64,000 bases of DNA from the sequence record MW598459; one strand, written 5' to 3'. This stretch comes from Escherichia phage vB_EcoM_RZ. The notes beneath the pieces are model-generated. The model saw only the letters and a program-made list of their open reading frames with translations, was not told the origin of the DNA and ran no database searches. Below are positions 6,957-34,425 of the stretch, one piece after another; the first letter of the stretch is position 1; the number at the start of each line of letters is the position of its first letter. The position numbers were made by a program, and so were the translations under genes.

Positions 6957-7101
6957 AATCATCTCCAGTAGTTGATAGGTTCATTATACTACAACCACTG
7001 GAGATGTACACTCTTTTATGCAAGGTTCAATAATAATAAACTAAAACAAACGCAAATTACTGGGATACACAACATCCAGATAAGGCACCACGTTTTGCTA
7101 C

Positions 7102-16482: not shown

Positions 16483-16857
16483 TTATTCCTTAAAGTGTGC
16501 TTTCAACATCTGGTAAACGGTCCAGGCTTCAGAGTTATTAGAAATTGTGATTTTAGTCAAAGGGAATTCGCTTGGTTCAAATGTTTCATCAGCGTCTTCG
16601 CATTCATCTTCAGTATCGTCATCTTTTTCTTCTTCAAAGAAACGACGTTCATCTTCCTTTATGAATATTCTCTCCATTCCACCGGTCGAAAATTCTATCC
16701 GATATACATCACCACCTTCAATTCCGACTGGTCTAAATCCTTCACCATTGATTATAGCATCAGCTATATTATCATTATCAGAGCATAACAAACGAAATCT
16801 GCTTTCAGCAACATTATCTTTAAAATAATACCATTTATCAGTTTCAAATTTCAACAT
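16483..16857 (-). CDS. Hypothetical acidic protein (about 125 aa from internal Met)
   Basis: ORF trimmed to MLKFETDKWYYF...; acidic stretch EEEKDDDTEDECEDADE. Confidence 0.4.
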   Translation of the reverse strand: MLKFETDKWYYFKDNVAESRFRLLCSDNDNIADAIINGEGFRPVGIEGGDVYRIEFSTGGMERIFIKEDERRFFEEEKDDDTEDECEDADETFEPSEFPLTKITISNNSEAWTVYQMLKAHFKE

Positions 16858-17074
16858 GATAAGTCTCCTTCCAAAAATCTGTACCATCTTCTGATTCTTC
16901 GCGGAACAGCGCATAGCTAGGTAATTCCGCACCTTCATACGCATACACATAAATGATATCAGTGGTGCAAAGAAATTCATTGATGTTTTTCTTAACAATC
17001 ACTTTATCACTTTCAGCGGTTTCCCAGAACTCTTCAGCGGTCAAGGAAGTGGTCACACAATCTTCATTAAACAT
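16844..17074 (-). CDS. Hypothetical protein (76 aa)
   Basis: ORF in minus-strand array. Confidence 0.4.
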   Translation of the reverse strand: MFNEDCVTTSLTAEEFWETAESDKVIVKKNINEFLCTTDIIYVYAYEGAELPSYALFREESEDGTDFWKETYHVEI

Positions 17075-28642: not shown

Positions 28643-28834
28643 TTATACAACGAAGATAGCTTTATCACCATTTGCATCAGTCACTTCATAAGTGTCTTCA
28701 TGATACAATGGAATAATCCAGGTAACACCATCATCAGCGATAACATGGATTGCTTCTTGGTCTTGCGACACGATTTCATATTCTTCAAAAATCTGGAAGA
28801 CGGAAATCTTAGAGCCCGTACACATTGCACTCAT
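28643..28834 (-). CDS. Hypothetical protein (63 aa)
   Basis: ORF in minus-strand array. Confidence 0.4.
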   Translation of the reverse strand: MSAMCTGSKISVFQIFEEYEIVSQDQEAIHVIADDGVTWIIPLYHEDTYEVTDANGDKAIFVV

Positions 28835-29030
28835 ATTGTTCCCTTCTTTTAATCAGTTGACGATGTGCCTTTTTAAGTTTACGAATCTGACGTTTAGTCG
28901 GTCGCGCAACATAAGCTTGAGTAGTTACTCGTCCAAAAACTCCATACTTGGGAGACGGCGTATCAATAAAGACTTCCCACTGGCAAGAGTAACTATATAT
29001 TGCTTTAGAGAATTGGGTCAAAACAAACAT
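28809..29030 (-). CDS. Hypothetical protein (73 aa)
   Basis: ORF in minus-strand array. Confidence 0.4.
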   Translation of the reverse strand: MFVLTQFSKAIYSYSCQWEVFIDTPSPKYGVFGRVTTQAYVARPTKRQIRKLKKAHRQLIKRREQYECNVYGL

Positions 29031-29031
29031 A

Positions 29032-29385
29032 TTAACCTCGCTTCATGAAGGCATTAAAAATCTGGTCGTCAACAGACTGTTCTTGAGCTTTGACCCAAGC
29101 TCCTTCCAGAATGTCATTCGCTTCAGTAGATATCATGACCCCAATTTCAGGGTTTCCTGTTATCCATGCTGCACAATCGCGTACATTCTTTTTATCAAAT
29201 GGATAGCCGCGAGTATCTTCATAAGGTCCATTCATTACCATAAATGAGCGAGCCTTTATGATAACATCATCTTTGACGATAATATAGCCAATCGCTTGAT
29301 TAAACCGAGGCTCACGGAATTCATAATGAGCATTACCATCATTATTGCTCACCAGTTCAAAATTCAGAAAATTATAATAACTCAT
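29032..29385 (-). CDS. Hypothetical protein (117 aa) with C-terminal tail shared with upstream neighbour
   Basis: Ends ...SVDDQIFNAFMKRG. Confidence 0.45.
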   Translation of the reverse strand: MSYYNFLNFELVSNNDGNAHYEFREPRFNQAIGYIIVKDDVIIKARSFMVMNGPYEDTRGYPFDKKNVRDCAAWITGNPEIGVMISTEANDILEGAWVKAQEQSVDDQIFNAFMKRG

Positions 29386-29386
29386 A

Positions 29387-29824
29387 CTAATCTCGCTTCA
29401 TGAAGGCATTAAAAATCTGGTCGTCAACTGAATAAACGGGGGTTTCCAGAATTTTCAAAAGACTGTTTTTGATGTACTTACCCGGGATACCCATATTAAC
29501 AATACTGTCATTCAATTCATTGTCAGGGTTGATGTCTTTAAATTCAAACCCATCAAATTCAACCTTGTCAGGAATACCATCGGCGAAAAAATAAACCAAT
29601 TGGTGCATTGTATTGCACGAAAATAATTTGGACTTGACCGCAATAAGTTCTTGCCAATGGTTTAATTCTTTGTTAAGGAGTTTATGGGCAAACGTAATTC
29701 TATTATCACTATCAACAAGAAAATAACCCAGGTATTGAAGGTCGTCGCTCCAAAACGCCCTGTATGCTTGTGCATTTGGATTTTTACAACGAAGTTTTTT
29801 GATAACTAAATTTCTGTTAATCAT
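29387..29824 (-). CDS. Hypothetical protein (about 146 aa) with the same C-terminal tail
   Basis: Ends ...SVDDQIFNAFMKRD; start trimmed to avoid overlap with sp. Confidence 0.45.
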   Translation of the reverse strand: MINRNLVIKKLRCKNPNAQAYRAFWSDDLQYLGYFLVDSDNRITFAHKLLNKELNHWQELIAVKSKLFSCNTMHQLVYFFADGIPDKVEFDGFEFKDINPDNELNDSIVNMGIPGKYIKNSLLKILETPVYSVDDQIFNAFMKRD

Positions 29825-29825
29825 T

Positions 29826-30119
29826 TTATTCACCTGTAACCCATTGAACAATTTTGCTATTGTCAAATGAAGCATCGCAATACAGAACATAGTTATACTG
29901 CATAACGTCACCAGAAGTCAATTGGTCAGATACTTCTTTAACCATATCAGGGCGGTCACGTTTAGTAATATTCATGATATCAGCATAAATCTGATGTTCA
30001 ACATCAGTCTGGTCAGCAGTCATAGACCACTCACAAAGGTCTTTATCAAGTCCAGCAGTAACTGGAGCTGTACCACATGATGCTACGGTAAGAATTGCTG
30101 CGATTAATAACTTTTTCAT
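29826..30119 (-). CDS. sp: Spackle periplasmic protein
   Basis: 97 aa with N-terminal signal peptide MKKLLIAAILTVASCG; size and position as T4 sp. Confidence 0.7.
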   Translation of the reverse strand: MKKLLIAAILTVASCGTAPVTAGLDKDLCEWSMTADQTDVEHQIYADIMNITKRDRPDMVKEVSDQLTSGDVMQYNYVLYCDASFDNSKIVQWVTGE

Positions 30120-30179
30120 TTCAATCTCCTCAGTAGTTGATAGGGATAATATACTGCATTACCCCTTTGATGTAAACTG

Positions 30180-30383
30180 TTATTTTTCGTTAGAACGATA
30201 ATCATATTCAAAAACTTTATTGTCATTAACAAAGGCTTTAACCAGCGCATTATTCACTTCTGCATACTGTACTGTAACCCATTCAATCATATTTTTGTCA
30301 CTGACATCCAGGGCGGTTTCTTTGGTAAACATATTACCATTTTCAAACCAACCAATAAACACTACGTTCTCTAATTTATACAT
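30180..30383 (-). CDS. dmd: Dmd antitoxin (inhibitor of RnlA/LsoA)
   Basis: 67 aa; VVF.GWF.N..MFTKE......QYAEVN.ALVKAF..D.KV matches recalled T4 Dmd. Confidence 0.8.
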   Translation of the reverse strand: MYKLENVVFIGWFENGNMFTKETALDVSDKNMIEWVTVQYAEVNNALVKAFVNDNKVFEYDYRSNEK

Positions 30384-30701
30384 TTAGATTTCCTCACAAA
30401 ACGCCCAGGCGGCGTGATAAACTGTTGCGCCTTTAGTGTCATTTAAACAAACCACGTCAACAGGTGCAATCACACGATAAAGACGGGGTTCTCCTCCATA
30501 TGAGCGAGATGCTCTTCCTGCATAGATACGCGCCAAACCAATATCTTCAGTAAAAAACACACGCCCTAAATTTTTCTTACGCCCAACTTCTGACAGAACA
30601 CCAGTTGCATCAGGAGGGCAAAGCATATTTTGGATTCCAGCATTAGAGCTTGACCCATGATAATAAACTTTGTATTCTGCCTTGCAATCAATGGTTTTCA
30701 T
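30384..30701 (-). CDS. Hypothetical protein (105 aa) with YHGSS motif
   Basis: ORF preceded by leader box. Confidence 0.45.
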   Translation of the reverse strand: MKTIDCKAEYKVYYHGSSSNAGIQNMLCPPDATGVLSEVGRKKNLGRVFFTEDIGLARIYAGRASRSYGGEPRLYRVIAPVDVVCLNDTKGATVYHAAWAFCEEI

Positions 30702-30739
30702 TTTATTCTCCAGTAGTTGATAGAGTCATTATAACATAA

Positions 30740-30766
30740 GAAAAAGGGGCTGTAAGCCCCTTTATT
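30740..30766 (-). terminator. Rho-independent terminator
   Basis: GGGGC-TGTAA-GCCCC hairpin flanked by A and T runs. Confidence 0.55.
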
Positions 30767-30769
30767 CAC

Positions 30770-31072
30770 TTACGCCAACTCATAGTTGTGCATAGTCAGA
30801 CAACGAATTTTCCCAGTAGTTGGGTGCATAACAGTCACACTAATTGTGTAATCATCACACACGTTAACAAAAGGTTCAGCGATAACATATACTGCCCCGC
30901 CTGCAAGCAGATACTCACGAAGAGAGCTGCGAACAGATGAAGGTTGAACATCGCTTTTGAGCTTTATTAATTTACCAGTTTGAATGCCTGATGCGATAAG
31001 AGCAGCACAGTTTTCATCACGGCGAGCGAACTGACCAAAATAGTAACGGTTCATATCGGTTTGATTAAACAT
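30770..31072 (-). CDS. Hypothetical protein (100 aa)
   Basis: ORF downstream of an early promoter. Confidence 0.45.
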   Translation of the reverse strand: MFNQTDMNRYYFGQFARRDENCAALIASGIQTGKLIKLKSDVQPSSVRSSLREYLLAGGAVYVIAEPFVNVCDDYTISVTVMHPTTGKIRCLTMHNYELA

Positions 31073-31114
31073 ATGGTTTTCCTTTTAACAGTTGGTTTAT
31101 TGTGTAACTCAGTA

Positions 31115-31152
31115 TGGAATCATTATGTCCTAAGACAAGGGGCTTGTACACT
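31115..31152 (-). promoter_or_regulatory. T4-type early promoter
   Basis: Minus strand TGTACA, 16 nt, CATAAT, leader GATTCCATACTGAGTTACAC. Confidence 0.5.
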
Positions 31153-31399
31153 ATTTTAATTCATTAATTAAATGAAAATCTTGTGCATTGAAAGTAATGA
31201 AAAAATAATCATTCCCTTCAACTGAAGCATGACAGGCAACACTACACCAACGCCTTGCTCTGTTCAAGGAGCAATCCAAAATTTTAAAAGGCTTCAGACC
31301 AACAATGGCAGCTGTTCTTTTATTATGCTCACAAATATCAGCATACTTTTGGAGAGCTTCTTCAGATTTGAACTGGTAATGCACATTAACTAATAACAT
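31151..31399 (-). CDS. Hypothetical protein (82 aa)
   Basis: ORF preceded by leader hairpin. Confidence 0.45.
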   Translation of the reverse strand: MLLVNVHYQFKSEEALQKYADICEHNKRTAAIVGLKPFKILDCSLNRARRWCSVACHASVEGNDYFFITFNAQDFHLINELK

Positions 31400-31419
31400 T
31401 TTATTATCCTCATCAGTAG

Positions 31420-31462
31420 TTGATGGGATAATAGTACACCCTTTTTATGGTGATGTAAACAC
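31420..31462 (-). promoter_or_regulatory. T4-type early promoter
   Basis: Minus strand GTTTAC (31460-31455), about 17 nt, TACTAT, then CCCATCAACTACTGATGAGGA leader. Confidence 0.5.
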
Positions 31463-31469
31463 CCTAAAT

Positions 31470-31492
31470 GAAAAAGACCCGAAGGTCTTTAG
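31470..31492 (-). terminator. Rho-independent terminator downstream of gene 41
   Basis: GACC-CGAA-GGTC hairpin with flanking A and T runs. Confidence 0.5.
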
Positions 31493-32928
31493 AATTTCAT
31501 TTGAGCAGCAAGGTCGTCCAGGTCGCTCCTGTTGACCCTGGTTTGTCTATTCATTTCAGCCTGGCGATTCATCTCACCAGTGGCTTCTTTAACCGTAGGG
31601 CCTTGCTTAGGAGCTGAATCATCATCAACCTCATACCAGCGTTGATTACCTTTCTTAACACCCATCTTGAATTTATTATAGTAGTTCTTATCGCCATAAC
31701 GAGACTTAAGCTGTTTGATTAACTGCAGTCCCATTTGAGCGAATTCTTCGGTCTCAACAACACCCAACATAAAGTCGGCCGTGTGAGCAATACCAAAGGA
31801 TTCTGCGATGTCAGCCATATCAATCTCAGCTGCAACGTTCGCACCCCTGGTTGTCTGTGCTGCAGTCCACAGGACTACATTTTTCTCAACCGCCAGACCA
31901 CGAAGTTCTTCTGCAACCATCTTAATCAGGCCGTAACTGTTTTCGGTAAACGTTTTCAGTCTTGAGCTTGCACAGATTGCCAGGTAGTCAACAATAATCA
32001 CATCCGGCACAAACCCTTGCTTCAGTTTGTATTCATTCAATAATGCACGGAAGGTATCCGCATGAGCGCCACCGGTTGGATATTGTTTTATCTTCAGAGT
32101 CCCAAGAGTCCCGGAAGCACGCCATTTTTCCATCTTAGCTTTATATTCCGCCCATGATATATGACCTTCATCAATATCATCCAGAGACACATCCAACAAG
32201 TTGGCATCAATACGTTTGGCACATACTTCTTCAGCCATTTCCATGCTTATATAAAGCACGTTATGACCAGTCTGAAGATAGTCAGCGGCTAATGAACAAA
32301 GTCCAAGGGATTTGCCGACGTTTGTCCCAGCCAGTAAAACGTTCTCTGTACCGTACTCAACCCCACCCTTTGTGATTTTATTCAGGATGTTAATACGGAA
32401 CGGAACCTTCTTCGATTTGTTCAGATAAGTCTGGAATCGAGCTTCGTAATCGTTTAACCAGTCATGGCCCAGAGCGGAGTCAAAACAGATAGACAATGCA
32501 TCGCGCATGATGTCGGGGATAGCACCAATATCCGGGATTCGTTTATCACGTTTATCTTTCGGAAGTTCGGCATTACTCTGGATTTCGATAATCCTGGATG
32601 TGGCATTGAACATCGCAGACTTCTGTACATACTTCTCGGTTTCTTTAACCAACCATTCCTGGTCTTCTGGAGTATCGGCCAGGACTCCTAAGAGTTTCTT
32701 TGTGCCTTCATATTCGACTTCAGAAAGGTCAGAACTATCGAGCGCGATATCAAGTGCAGTCTTAGTTGGTACCGCTTGATATTCTTTTACGTGTTCGTTA
32801 ATCGTATTAAAAAGGGTCTTTGCAGGACCCTTTTCAAAATATGTGTTATTCAGATATGGCCAGACTTTAACAAAATATTCCTTGTTAAAGAGTAGCTGGG
32901 ATAAAATAGTTTCTACCACTTCCACCAC
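31489..32928 (-). CDS. 41: Replicative DNA helicase gp41 (DnaB-like)
   Basis: 479 aa; Walker A GTNVGKSLG; matches recalled T4 gp41. Confidence 0.93.
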   Translation of the reverse strand: MVEVVETILSQLLFNKEYFVKVWPYLNNTYFEKGPAKTLFNTINEHVKEYQAVPTKTALDIALDSSDLSEVEYEGTKKLLGVLADTPEDQEWLVKETEKYVQKSAMFNATSRIIEIQSNAELPKDKRDKRIPDIGAIPDIMRDALSICFDSALGHDWLNDYEARFQTYLNKSKKVPFRINILNKITKGGVEYGTENVLLAGTNVGKSLGLCSLAADYLQTGHNVLYISMEMAEEVCAKRIDANLLDVSLDDIDEGHISWAEYKAKMEKWRASGTLGTLKIKQYPTGGAHADTFRALLNEYKLKQGFVPDVIIVDYLAICASSRLKTFTENSYGLIKMVAEELRGLAVEKNVVLWTAAQTTRGANVAAEIDMADIAESFGIAHTADFMLGVVETEEFAQMGLQLIKQLKSRYGDKNYYNKFKMGVKKGNQRWYEVDDDSAPKQGPTVKEATGEMNRQAEMNRQTRVNRSDLDDLAAQMKF

Positions 32929-33257
32929 CTCTTTTTCATTTTAATCTTATCAATTTCATCTTGTATTTGCATTGTAACACACTTTTCTACATGCACTGCA
33001 AGCTCCGCTTTGCGGTCTTCGGAAGGGGTGCCGAAATCAACTGAAACTTTTCCAGATGGTTCAATTTTAATTCCGGTTACGTACACAATGTGACTGGACC
33101 CATCAGGGAGTGATAACAGAATTTCCTGTCGCACGGTTCCCATGGATTGCCGGATAATCTCCAAACTTTTTTCGTAGTAAGGTACAGAAGGAGCCTTAGC
33201 TCCCTCCGCATCTTTCTCGAAATTATCTAAATCAGATAAATCGATATCATTCATCAA
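32913..33257 (-). CDS. Hypothetical protein (114 aa); gene 40 position
   Basis: Lies between uvsX and 41 as gene 40 does in T4; sequence not independently recognised. Confidence 0.5.
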   Translation of the reverse strand: MMNDIDLSDLDNFEKDAEGAKAPSVPYYEKSLEIIRQSMGTVRQEILLSLPDGSSHIVYVTGIKIEPSGKVSVDFGTPSEDRKAELAVHVEKCVTMQIQDEIDKIKMKKRWWKW

Positions 33258-34425
33258 GGTCTTCCATCATATCTAAATCGTTTTCAATATCTGCAGCAGA
33301 CGGTTTTGTCTTACCTTCCGGAGCAGTGTATTTTTCAACCTTGGAGGCAATAAGCGCGTCAACTTCGGCATCAACAACAGCATTGCTATCGATTGCACCC
33401 AGTTGGTAATGGCGTTTGATTGCATCACGGAAAGGTTCGTGTTTGAACAGTGGGCCCCAGAATTCGGTGCAGTTAGTATCTTTTGCGCGCCATGATTTTT
33501 CTTCGCGGACCATTTCACCGGTCTCAACATCAAGATATTCACGGTTATACCAACCAACTTTTGGTTTCACCACAAATCCGATTTCCATTGCCATATCAAG
33601 CAGGCCAGAATACGGGTCAATACCGCCATCGAATTTTACATCAATGAAGAATTTACTTTTCTCTTTGACCATACGAGATTTTTCGGCGTTCAGAACAAAT
33701 TGGAAGCCTTCAAGTTCTTTACCAGTTTCTTTAATCTGGCGTTTGCCGATAATGAATACGGTGTCCGCGGAATACATAACACCTGTACCGCCGGTCATAA
33801 CGGTTTTACTGTACATCTCAATCGTCTCGATTGTATGGTTAACCGCGACACAAGGAATATCCTTGATGCTAAAATATGGAGTAACAATACGGAACAGAGA
33901 TTTCAGGGATTTAGCACGAGTCATATCGCCAACAACTTTTTCGTTCATCGCATCTTCTGTTTCTTTTTTCGACGCCATGTTACCGATTGAGTCAATAAAG
34001 ATAATGACTTTTTCACCACGCTCAATTGCTTCAAGCTGGTTAACCATATCAACTTTCAATTGTTCAACCGACTGGATTGGTGTATGGATAACACGCTCCG
34101 GGTCAACTTTCATTGCACGAAGATAGGCTTCTGTGATACCAAATTCTGAATCATAGAACAAACAGATTGCATCGGGGTATTTGTTCATATATGCAGAGAC
34201 CATCGTTAAACCCATATTGGATTTAAAGTGTTTTGACGGACCAGCAAAAATAGTCAAACCTGACTGCATACCACCATCTAGTGCACCGCTGATTGCAATG
34301 TTCAGCATTGGGATTTTTGTACGAACTACATCTTTATCATTAAAGAACTTGGACTTGGTAAGAGTCGCAGTCATTTTGGATGTAGAAGCTTTAATCAAAC
34401 GGGATTTCAAATCTGCAATAGACAT
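33247..34425 (-). CDS. uvsX: UvsX recombinase (RecA-like)
   Basis: 392 aa; Walker A region AGPSKHFKS; matches recalled T4 UvsX. Confidence 0.93.
   Translation of the reverse strand: MSIADLKSRLIKASTSKMTATLTKSKFFNDKDVVRTKIPMLNIAISGALDGGMQSGLTIFAGPSKHFKSNMGLTMVSAYMNKYPDAICLFYDSEFGITEAYLRAMKVDPERVIHTPIQSVEQLKVDMVNQLEAIERGEKVIIFIDSIGNMASKKETEDAMNEKVVGDMTRAKSLKSLFRIVTPYFSIKDIPCVAVNHTIETIEMYSKTVMTGGTGVMYSADTVFIIGKRQIKETGKELEGFQFVLNAEKSRMVKEKSKFFIDVKFDGGIDPYSGLLDMAMEIGFVVKPKVGWYNREYLDVETGEMVREEKSWRAKDTNCTEFWGPLFKHEPFRDAIKRHYQLGAIDSNAVVDAEVDALIASKVEKYTAPEGKTKPSAADIENDLDMMEDLDE

Follow-up and report, generated by a model that had tools for sequence, protein, structure and literature searches.

What kind of genes does Escherichia phage vB_EcoM_RZ carry between gene 41 and the antitoxin gene dmd, and do they have a function in common with each other or with Dmd? 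In T4, as the original prediction for this locus correctly stated, gene 41 is followed almost directly by dmd, with a gap of 58 bp. In the 64,000-nucleotide stretch of sequence record MW598459 analyzed here (the window), the interval between the two genes measures 1.1 kb and contains three small open reading frames (ORFs), which we name after their lengths in amino acids (aa): ORF82 (31151–31399), ORF100 (30770–31072), and ORF105 (30384–30701). These lengths and coordinates had been predicted exactly, but the ORFs had been placed downstream of dmd. All three are on the minus strand, the order of transcription runs from high to low coordinates through uvsX, 40, 41, ORF82, ORF100, ORF105, dmd, and sp, and the ORFs therefore lie upstream of dmd, between it and gene 41. 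The 67-aa ORF at 30180–30383 (minus strand) is identified as Dmd by its match to Pfam family PF17587 (E 1.1e-20). Over the region, Shigella phage SP18 and its relatives (Gaprivervirus, Tevenvirinae) are about 98% identical to the window.

Structure prediction and profile comparisons point to ORF105 as a putative ADP-ribosyltransferase (ART) of the Arr branch. We put the odds at slightly better than even that the gene 41–dmd interval consists of three independent early-gene cassettes with ORF105 as their functional core, a minimal ART that would act on a host or defense target.

ORF105 has a predicted ART fold and is related to Arr

An AlphaFold2 (AF2) model of ORF105, built with 26 sequences, reached a pLDDT of 84.5 and a pTM of 0.76, and its Foldseek matches are almost exclusively ART folds, DarT, ParT, and RES among them. 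In the search against the PDB, Arr ranked at the top (2HW2, E 4e-3, probability 1.00, TMq 0.59), followed by Tpt1; against BFVD, the matches were a phage protein named 'Rifampin ADP-ribosyl transferase' (E 2e-8) and a putative phage RNA 2'-phosphotransferase. The predicted structure displays the split β-sheet NAD+-binding fold that characterizes the ART superfamily. On the basis of this model, the fold of ORF105 is predicted with confidence to be that of an ART.

Single-sequence searches with ORF105 against Pfam, NCBIfam, PADLOC, and the PDB returned nothing significant, and Arr was reached by a broader profile only. When the profile was built from 28 diverse ORF105-type domains, the best PDB match was again Arr (2HW2/9IAF, E 0.0035), and hhalign aligned the ORF105 family with Arr residues 13–82 at 95% probability and an E value of 3.8e-8. 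Moreover, 13 relatives of ORF105 score above the gathering threshold of the Pfam family Arr-ms (26–35 bits versus 25), in matches that span model positions 1–67 of 99 only. Judged by these profiles, ORF105 is homologous to Arr. The resemblance of the 105-aa protein to ADP-ribosyltransferases, which the original prediction had found faint, is thus borne out by the fold matches of the AF2 model, by profile homology to Arr, and by the relatives above the Arr-ms cutoff. The accompanying reservation that the protein is far too short can be dropped, as 105 aa comes close to the minimal core of an ART, exemplified by Arr (143 aa).

Active-site residues

In the alignment of ORF105 to Arr, H15 corresponds to H19, F49 to Y49, T51 to T51, and the stretch E38-x-G40-R41 to E40-x-G42-R43. 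In Arr, H19 and Y49 (H18 and Y48 in the numbering of the paper) bind NAD+, and their mutation abolishes activity (PMC3138739). H15-G16 and F49 would supply the first-strand His and the second-strand aromatic residue that contact NAD+ across the ART superfamily. Eleven residues, namely H15, G16, P29, E38, F49, A57, Y60, A61, G69, G70, and G91, are invariant across the 28 diverse family members, and the family has an invariant basic loop, E38-x-G-R41-K-K-N44. E103 is kept in the T4-like subgroup only. Of the YHGSS...Y...E pattern first read into the protein, the YHGSS motif is real and its H15-G16 invariant, but the proposed Y and E are not conserved positions.

Three stricter assignments were considered and rejected. 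The H-Y-E triad of the PARP/diphtheria-toxin type is not present, with Phe at the second position and no conserved Glu on the fifth strand. The full set of Arr features, which comprises the substrate-loop residue Asp84 and the C-terminal region of the rifampin pocket, is incomplete: the position of D84 is variable, and the C-terminal part is absent. The two-lobe architecture of Tpt1/KptA does not fit either, as ORF105 does not have the N-terminal RNA-binding lobe with its catalytic Arg-His-Arg residues. From its sequence, we classify ORF105 as an uncharacterized phage ART of the Arr branch with a family-specific basic loop, GRKKNL, and an intact NAD-site signature.

Comparison with known ARTs sets this family apart in several respects. 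Arr (PF12120, Arr-ms; PDB 2HW2, 9IAF), at 143 aa, has a C-terminal part that the 105-aa protein does not have, carries Tyr49 where ORF105 has Phe, and uses Asp84, which is not conserved here; D84 (D83 in the numbering of the paper) is a residue of the substrate loop (PMC3138739). As ORF105 is an early gene of lytic coliphages, rifamycin is an implausible substrate. To Tpt1/KptA there is no significant sequence similarity, and the Arg-His-Arg-Arg tetrad of these enzymes is missing together with the N-terminal lobe.

T4 Alt, ModA, and ModB are textbook host-takeover enzymes and, like the role proposed for ORF105, they are phage ARTs that remodel the host early; they belong, however, to the R-S-E clade, are about 200–680 aa long, have protein targets, and show no sequence relationship to ORF105. 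AcrIF11, an anti-CRISPR ART from Pseudomonas mobile elements, modifies a protein Asn of Cas8f, and no sequence similarity between it and ORF105 was detected.

The ORF105 family and its distribution

ORF105 belongs to phrog_2110 (E 4e-58) and is equivalent to RB69ORF040c of RB69-type phages. A database search yielded 95 clusters, mostly with more than 60% identity, from phages of Escherichia, Enterobacter, Pantoea, Acinetobacter, Pectobacterium, Erwinia, Serratia, Citrobacter, Providencia, and Vibrio. Two sources among these clusters use the name (putative) ADP-ribosyl transferase; across all searches, a few records and proteins are labeled putative ADP-ribosyl transferase, and one record is labeled rifampin ADP-ribosyl transferase. 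By tblastn, the family was found in 608 phage records from at least 10 host genera, including 116 records from Klebsiella phages, 68 from Acinetobacter, 62 from Aeromonas, 29 from Enterobacter, and 14 each from Cronobacter and Vibrio phages.

A profile search of 1.84 billion cluster representatives retrieved 251 relatives of ORF105, many of which are domains within proteins of 250–3900 aa. The domains that share a protein with the ORF105-type domain are ART-PolyVal, LPD23, ddrB-ParB, a lambda-type portal, CHAP, GNAT, Toprim, NUDIX, 2H/Acb1, and DUF7178. P0126 combines the ORF105-type domain with a lambda-type portal and a 2H/Acb1-like phosphoesterase, and two other proteins, P0127 and P0169, combine it with NUDIX. 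As NUDIX and 2H/Acb1 domains act on derivatives of ADP-ribose, these fusions hint that the ART makes products of this sort. The gene neighborhoods of the small metagenomic relatives, which lie on short contigs, yielded nothing informative.

The occurrence of the ORF105-type domain within such fusions also links the family to the ARTs of polyvalent proteins (Iyer et al. 2017), which are predicted to enter the host with the phage DNA (PMC5512222), and for both an early action on the host is predicted. The two differ in that the ORF105 family is Arr-like rather than an ART-PolyVal of the H-Y-D type and in that, in T4-like phages, it is encoded by a stand-alone gene behind an early promoter and not delivered with the virion as part of a fusion.

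Outside the Tevenvirinae, in RB43, Klebsiella phage Roth23, and Aeromonas phage phiAS4, the ORF105-type ART is encoded a few genes upstream of srd, the decoy of σ70. In T4, this place near srd is occupied by modA and modB, and the ORF105-type ART may be a positional replacement of the Mod-type ARTs. In RB43 and Roth23, the ART gene is preceded by a gene for a conserved protein of about 300 aa (phrog_7439).

Early promoters and leader boxes

All three ORFs are genes and not chance reading frames. Each is preceded by a Shine–Dalgarno sequence and, directly upstream and on the correct strand, by a site resembling a σ70/T4 early promoter; the 2-kb region contains 16 promoter-like sites, as against 7.0 ± 2.5 in shuffled sequences. 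Purifying selection was evident from Nei–Gojobori pN/pS ratios of 0.20 for ORF100 (versus VR7), 0.19 and 0.17 for ORF105 (versus JS10 and JS09, respectively), and 0.40 for ORF82 (versus RB3). An early promoter or leader box of its own had been proposed for each ORF, and this agrees with promoter-like sites before three of the three and a leader box before two.

Directly after the gene 41 stop codon, a terminator scan found a hairpin on the minus strand (AAAGACC-TTCG-GGTCTTT, 31473–31490) that is followed by a T run and makes up the stem-loop half of a PeSL-like motif. Next in the direction of transcription is the T4-type early promoter-like site of ORF82, TTTACA N17 TACTAT (31431–31459, minus), which conforms to the consensus TTTACW..N17..TAYWAT of the stem-loop and early-promoter (PeSL) cassettes known from the hyperplastic regions of T4-like genomes (PMC4122927). 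Between its −10 element and the Shine–Dalgarno sequence lies a leader box, CATCAACTACTG (31414–31425, minus). The site before ORF100, TGTACA N17 CATAAT (31122–31150, minus), is weaker and overlaps a small 5-bp hairpin, ACAAG-CCC-CTTGT (31135–31147). After ORF100, the scan found a second terminator-like hairpin, AAAGGGGCT-TAC-AGCCCCTTT (30743–30763, minus), which overlaps the −35 element of the ORF105–dmd promoter-like site and so forms a PeSL-like composite with it. This site, CTTACA N17 TATAAT with an extended TG (30728–30756, minus), matches the early promoter at 10 of 12 positions, and it is followed by the leader box TATCAACTACTG (30711–30722, minus) upstream of the Shine–Dalgarno sequence GGAG of ORF105.

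The 12-nt box TATCAACTACTG is present between the −10 element and the Shine–Dalgarno sequence of ORF82, ORF105, and sp. The window contains eight copies with no more than one mismatch, all of them on the minus strand (at 6966, 18787, 22906, 30131, 30711, 31414, 35688, and 63360), and with at most two mismatches there are 18 matches, as against 6.0 ± 2.2 in shuffled sequences. The box probably belongs to an early promoter/leader (PeSL) consensus specific to the lineage. The arrangement resembles the PeSL cassettes that Arbiol et al. 2010 and Comeau et al. 2014 described in T4-like phages, with a TTTACW-N17-TAYWAT early promoter that follows or overlaps a stem-loop before each variable ORF, except that the motif before ORF100 is weak. 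A search of positions 29000–32000 against Rfam returned no credible RNA family, the sole match scoring 24 bits against a cutoff of 55.

ORF82, ORF100, and the variable slot

ORF82 was assigned to phrog_2980, which is labeled 'goF' (E 3.6e-20), and is 57% identical to RB3_036, whose gene lies between 61.4 and sp in RB3; Cys23, Cys43, Cys52, and His57 are common to both. A weak Pfam match of ORF82 to zf-CGNR (E 0.002, below the cutoff) was set aside because GoF does not have the Cys and His residues. With the N-terminus of T4 GoF (ComC-alpha, 141 aa), ORF82 shares 33% identity over 63 aa (BLASTP, pairwise E 1e-7), and in a MAFFT alignment the similarity reaches to about residue 90 of GoF. It is therefore limited to the N-terminal part and does not extend over the full length, the acidic C-terminal half of GoF being absent from ORF82.

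T4 GoF itself is in phrog_622 and not in phrog_2980, and the window contains a separate, full-length goF ortholog at about 16486–16860 on the minus strand (tblastn, 31% over 141 aa). In view of this ortholog, ORF82 is best described as a paralog of the N-terminal domain of GoF and not as GoF, and the name 'goF mRNA metabolism modulator' that RefSeq gives to its SP18 equivalent, SP18_gp041, is an over-annotation; the 'goF' label was carried over from the name of the PHROG. ORF82 probably modulates RNA metabolism. The large-database search with ORF82 returned its own cluster only, and the PDB search no match.

ORF100 belongs to phrog_17014 and was found in 20 records only, all of the Gaprivervirus type and at least 94% identical (tblastn, IMG/VR). 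A search of 5.8 billion proteins returned its own cluster only, there was no match in Pfam, NCBIfam, or the PDB, and in PADLOC the single match was at chance level (LmuC, E 0.04). Structure prediction had been proposed as a check on each protein; informative for ORF105, it gave for ORF100 a single-sequence AF2 model with a pLDDT of 46.7, too poor for a fold search. From its sequence distribution, we regard ORF100 as an ORFan restricted to Gaprivervirus, a lineage-specific accessory gene.

The content of the slot between gene 41 and the ART gene varies: it is empty in JS10, holds the unrelated 124-aa RB69ORF041c in JS09, ORF100 alone in VR7, and ORF82 together with ORF100 in the window. A relationship between ORF100 and RB69ORF041c, which occupies the equal slot in Mosigvirus, was considered and rejected, as the two sequences are unrelated.

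The ORF105–dmd junction

The stop codon of ORF105 abuts the start codon of dmd in the sequence TAAATG (GAGGAAATCTAAATG), and the dmd Shine–Dalgarno sequence (GAGG) lies inside the last codons of ORF105. Junction and internal Shine–Dalgarno sequence are kept in VR7 and JS10, while in JS09 the genes overlap by ATGA. In adjacency, co-orientation, and junction, ORF105 and dmd are thus arranged as a type II toxin–antitoxin pair would be. Iyer et al. 2022 (Viruses 14:1977; PMC9503650) indeed predicted such a pair, a 'p0068-family' ART with Dmd, in phages of Escherichia, Shigella, and Salmonella, and they speculate on RNA substrates for this ART. The pair shares with our locus the ART gene directly upstream of dmd and the phage group; the proposal is purely computational, and 'p0068' may be the family of ORF105.

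The role of ORF105 and alternative explanations

In the mechanism that we favor, each of the three cassettes would stand behind a stem-loop and early-promoter (PeSL-like) motif, in a hyperplastic region that carries counter-defense genes. ORF105 would be the stand-alone, early-transcribed form of a polyvalent-protein domain, co-transcribed with dmd and translationally coupled to it. Right after infection, it would bind NAD+ through His15-Gly16-Ser17, Phe49, and nearby aromatic residues, and it would then transfer ADP-ribose to a host or host-defense target. A nonprotein acceptor with a hydroxyl or phosphate group is favored because there is no catalytic Glu or Asp, because Arr and Tpt1 are the relatives, and because the basic loop is invariant. 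The acceptors of these two enzymes are a rifampin hydroxyl and an RNA phosphate, respectively, and an acceptor of this kind, be it a small molecule, a nucleotide, or the end of an RNA, has a slight edge over a protein side chain. That ORF105 is catalytically active, that it acts early on a target in the host, and that its acceptor is of this class is what we infer. Given the counter-defense-rich context, an anti-defense or host-takeover role of the three ORFs is plausible. No functional link is demonstrable between ORF105 and either ORF82 or ORF100, and the latter two are ordinary cargo of the hyperplastic region.

Several observations weigh against an enzymatic, anti-defense ORF105. The protein itself has no match to Pfam Arr-ms at E ≤ 1, does not have the C-terminal third of Arr, and carries at the second triad position an invariant Phe instead of Tyr. 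The family alignment contains no conserved acidic residue at the position of Arr D84 or of the canonical catalytic Glu (around residues 83–87), so a purely binding, noncatalytic role is conceivable. The literature yielded no experimental characterization of the family, and for a gene in a hyperplastic region, guilt by association is a weak argument that its role is anti-defense.

The absence of a conserved catalytic Glu or Asp is also the starting point of a different proposal, in which ORF105 would be an inert ART fold that sequesters NAD+ or an NAD-derived immune signal (gcADPR-type, or ADP-ribose derivatives) as a sponge-type counter-defense. The conserved residues are the ligand binders of Arr (the His, the aromatics, and the E-x-G-R loop), the protein is very small and predicted to be transcribed early, and phages are known to counter NAD-derived signaling (PMC9503650). 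Yet a canonical catalytic Glu is missing from Arr and Tpt1 as well, both of them active enzymes, and its absence therefore does not predict inactivity; a stoichiometric sponge would be odd among the enzymatic ART-PolyVal, NUDIX, 2H, and GNAT domains of polyvalent proteins, and the NUDIX and 2H neighbors suggest ADP-ribose products. We consider such a sponge unlikely. If ORF105 is an enzyme, its chemistry could be that of Tpt1/KptA, with ADP-ribose placed on a terminal or 2'-phosphate to cap or clean RNA ends left by host RNase toxins, the pathway in which Dmd acts. The invariant basic loop GRKKN would suit phosphate binding, the relatives include one fusion with a 2H phosphoesterase and two with NUDIX, domains that process Tpt1 products (by the logic of PMC9503650), the Roth23 gene lies 1.4 kb from an RNA ligase gene, and RNA substrates were also considered by Iyer et al. 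(PMC9503650). However, the sequence homology is to Arr and not to Tpt1, and the linkage to RNA ligase is not conserved, which leaves this chemistry with a low probability. A bolder combination, in which ORF105 ADP-ribosylates not proteins but RNA phosphate ends or a nucleotide-type immune messenger and, together with Dmd, shields phage transcripts from host HEPN RNase toxins such as RnlA and LsoA, is a long shot.

The junction with dmd bears on two further explanations. One takes ORF105 and Dmd to be a phage type II toxin–antitoxin system, in which the ART would be a toxin, perhaps acting on RNA, and Dmd would neutralize it in addition to inhibiting RnlA and LsoA. The genes are adjacent, co-oriented, and coupled, with TAAATG or ATGA junctions in Gaprivervirus, Dhakavirus, and Mosigvirus; 216 phage records contain a colinear ART–dmd pair; Dmd has been proven to bind unrelated toxins in the manner of an antitoxin (PMC9503650); and many bacterial ARTs are toxins, such as the DarT, ParT, and RES found among the fold matches. 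An antitoxin should, however, consistently accompany its toxin, and here the partners are mostly separate, with the ART in 608 and Dmd in 796 records. About 300 ART records come from six genera (Klebsiella, Acinetobacter, Aeromonas, Enterobacter, Cronobacter, and Vibrio) that are absent from the ten most frequent in the Dmd search, the tenth of which has 2 records. In Roth23, Konradin, phiAS4, and RB43, the ART gene is followed immediately by genes for tiny, unrelated proteins that do not match Dmd, and the idea of a divergent Dmd at this place in Klebsiella, Acinetobacter, Aeromonas, and RB43-type phages was tested and rejected. Conversely, T4 and RB3 have Dmd without the ART, and the RB3 Dmd is closely similar to that of the window. 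This distribution argues against an obligate toxin–antitoxin relationship of ART and Dmd. An unneutralized toxin would, moreover, be costly for a lytic phage that needs the machinery of its host, and the published proposal would carry over to ORF105 only if 'p0068' is its family; taken together, a toxin–antitoxin pair is improbable. The other explanation, that PeSL-mediated exchange has brought the three ORFs into a slot prone to recombination as unrelated cargo, with no function in common and no functional link to dmd, and that the adjacency of ORF105 and dmd is historical, has an even chance of being right. It accords with the differing content of the slot between gene 41 and the ART in JS10, JS09, VR7, and the window, with the location of the ORF82 homolog elsewhere in RB3, and with the PeSL-type stem-loop and promoter motif before each ORF. 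It fits ORF82 and ORF100, but less so the ART–dmd junction, which is found in four of four genomes from three genera, and the colinear pairs; it is also compatible with the action on a host or defense target that we propose for ORF105.

The surrounding counter-defense region

Upstream of the interval lie uvsX (33247–34425), gene 40 (32913–33257), and gene 41 (31489–32928), and downstream, beyond dmd, lies sp (29826–30119; Pfam T4_Spackle, E 1.7e-43), all on the minus strand. Also between genes 41 and 61, at 28809–29030 on the minus strand, is a gene for a 73-aa homolog of T4 61.4/TifA, the anti-ToxIN factor (39% identity, E 1e-13), downstream of sp and of two genes with an AdfA-type tail. In T4 and JS10, tifA/61.4 directly follows dmd, and this difference in position indicates that the counter-defense genes of the island have been reshuffled between lineages.

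The two tail-bearing genes are adjacent, encode proteins of 117 and about 145 aa, and share at their 3' ends a 49-nt direct repeat that is 94% identical (29028–29076 and 29383–29431). Both proteins end in SVDDQIFNAFMKR[G/D], which is the C-terminal tail of T4 61.2/AdfA, an anti-DarT factor. The shared tail may be functional, or it may mark a recombination joint. The mechanically called ORF at 29387–29911 on the minus strand begins with GTG, would encode 174 aa, and overlaps sp at the latter's 3' end. Both the PHROG match, which covers residues 30–174, and the SP18 annotation (146 aa) indicate that translation begins further downstream, immediately behind the stop codon of sp.

Significance

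The ART prediction and the ART–Dmd pairing are already known from the literature or from GenBank annotations, and the window does not represent the discovery of a new kind of element. The earlier description of the three ORFs as unknown genes accordingly needs qualification, as the ORF105 family is widespread and in a few records named as an ART, an ART–Dmd pair had been computed by Iyer et al. 2022, and ORF82 is a paralog of the GoF N-terminal domain.

The ORF105 family would nonetheless be a fourth type of ART, of about 100 aa and unrelated to Alt, ModA, and ModB, in at least 608 sequenced T4-like phages. If ORF105 does modify RNA ends or a nucleotide messenger in concert with Dmd, T-even phages would have a fourth ART activity, with a mechanism of its own. 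Small, strongly conserved, and coupled to dmd in about 200 coliphages, ORF105 is an easy and potentially rewarding target for experiments, which could reveal a new class of ADP-ribosylation substrates, a counter-defense function, or a dual role of Dmd.

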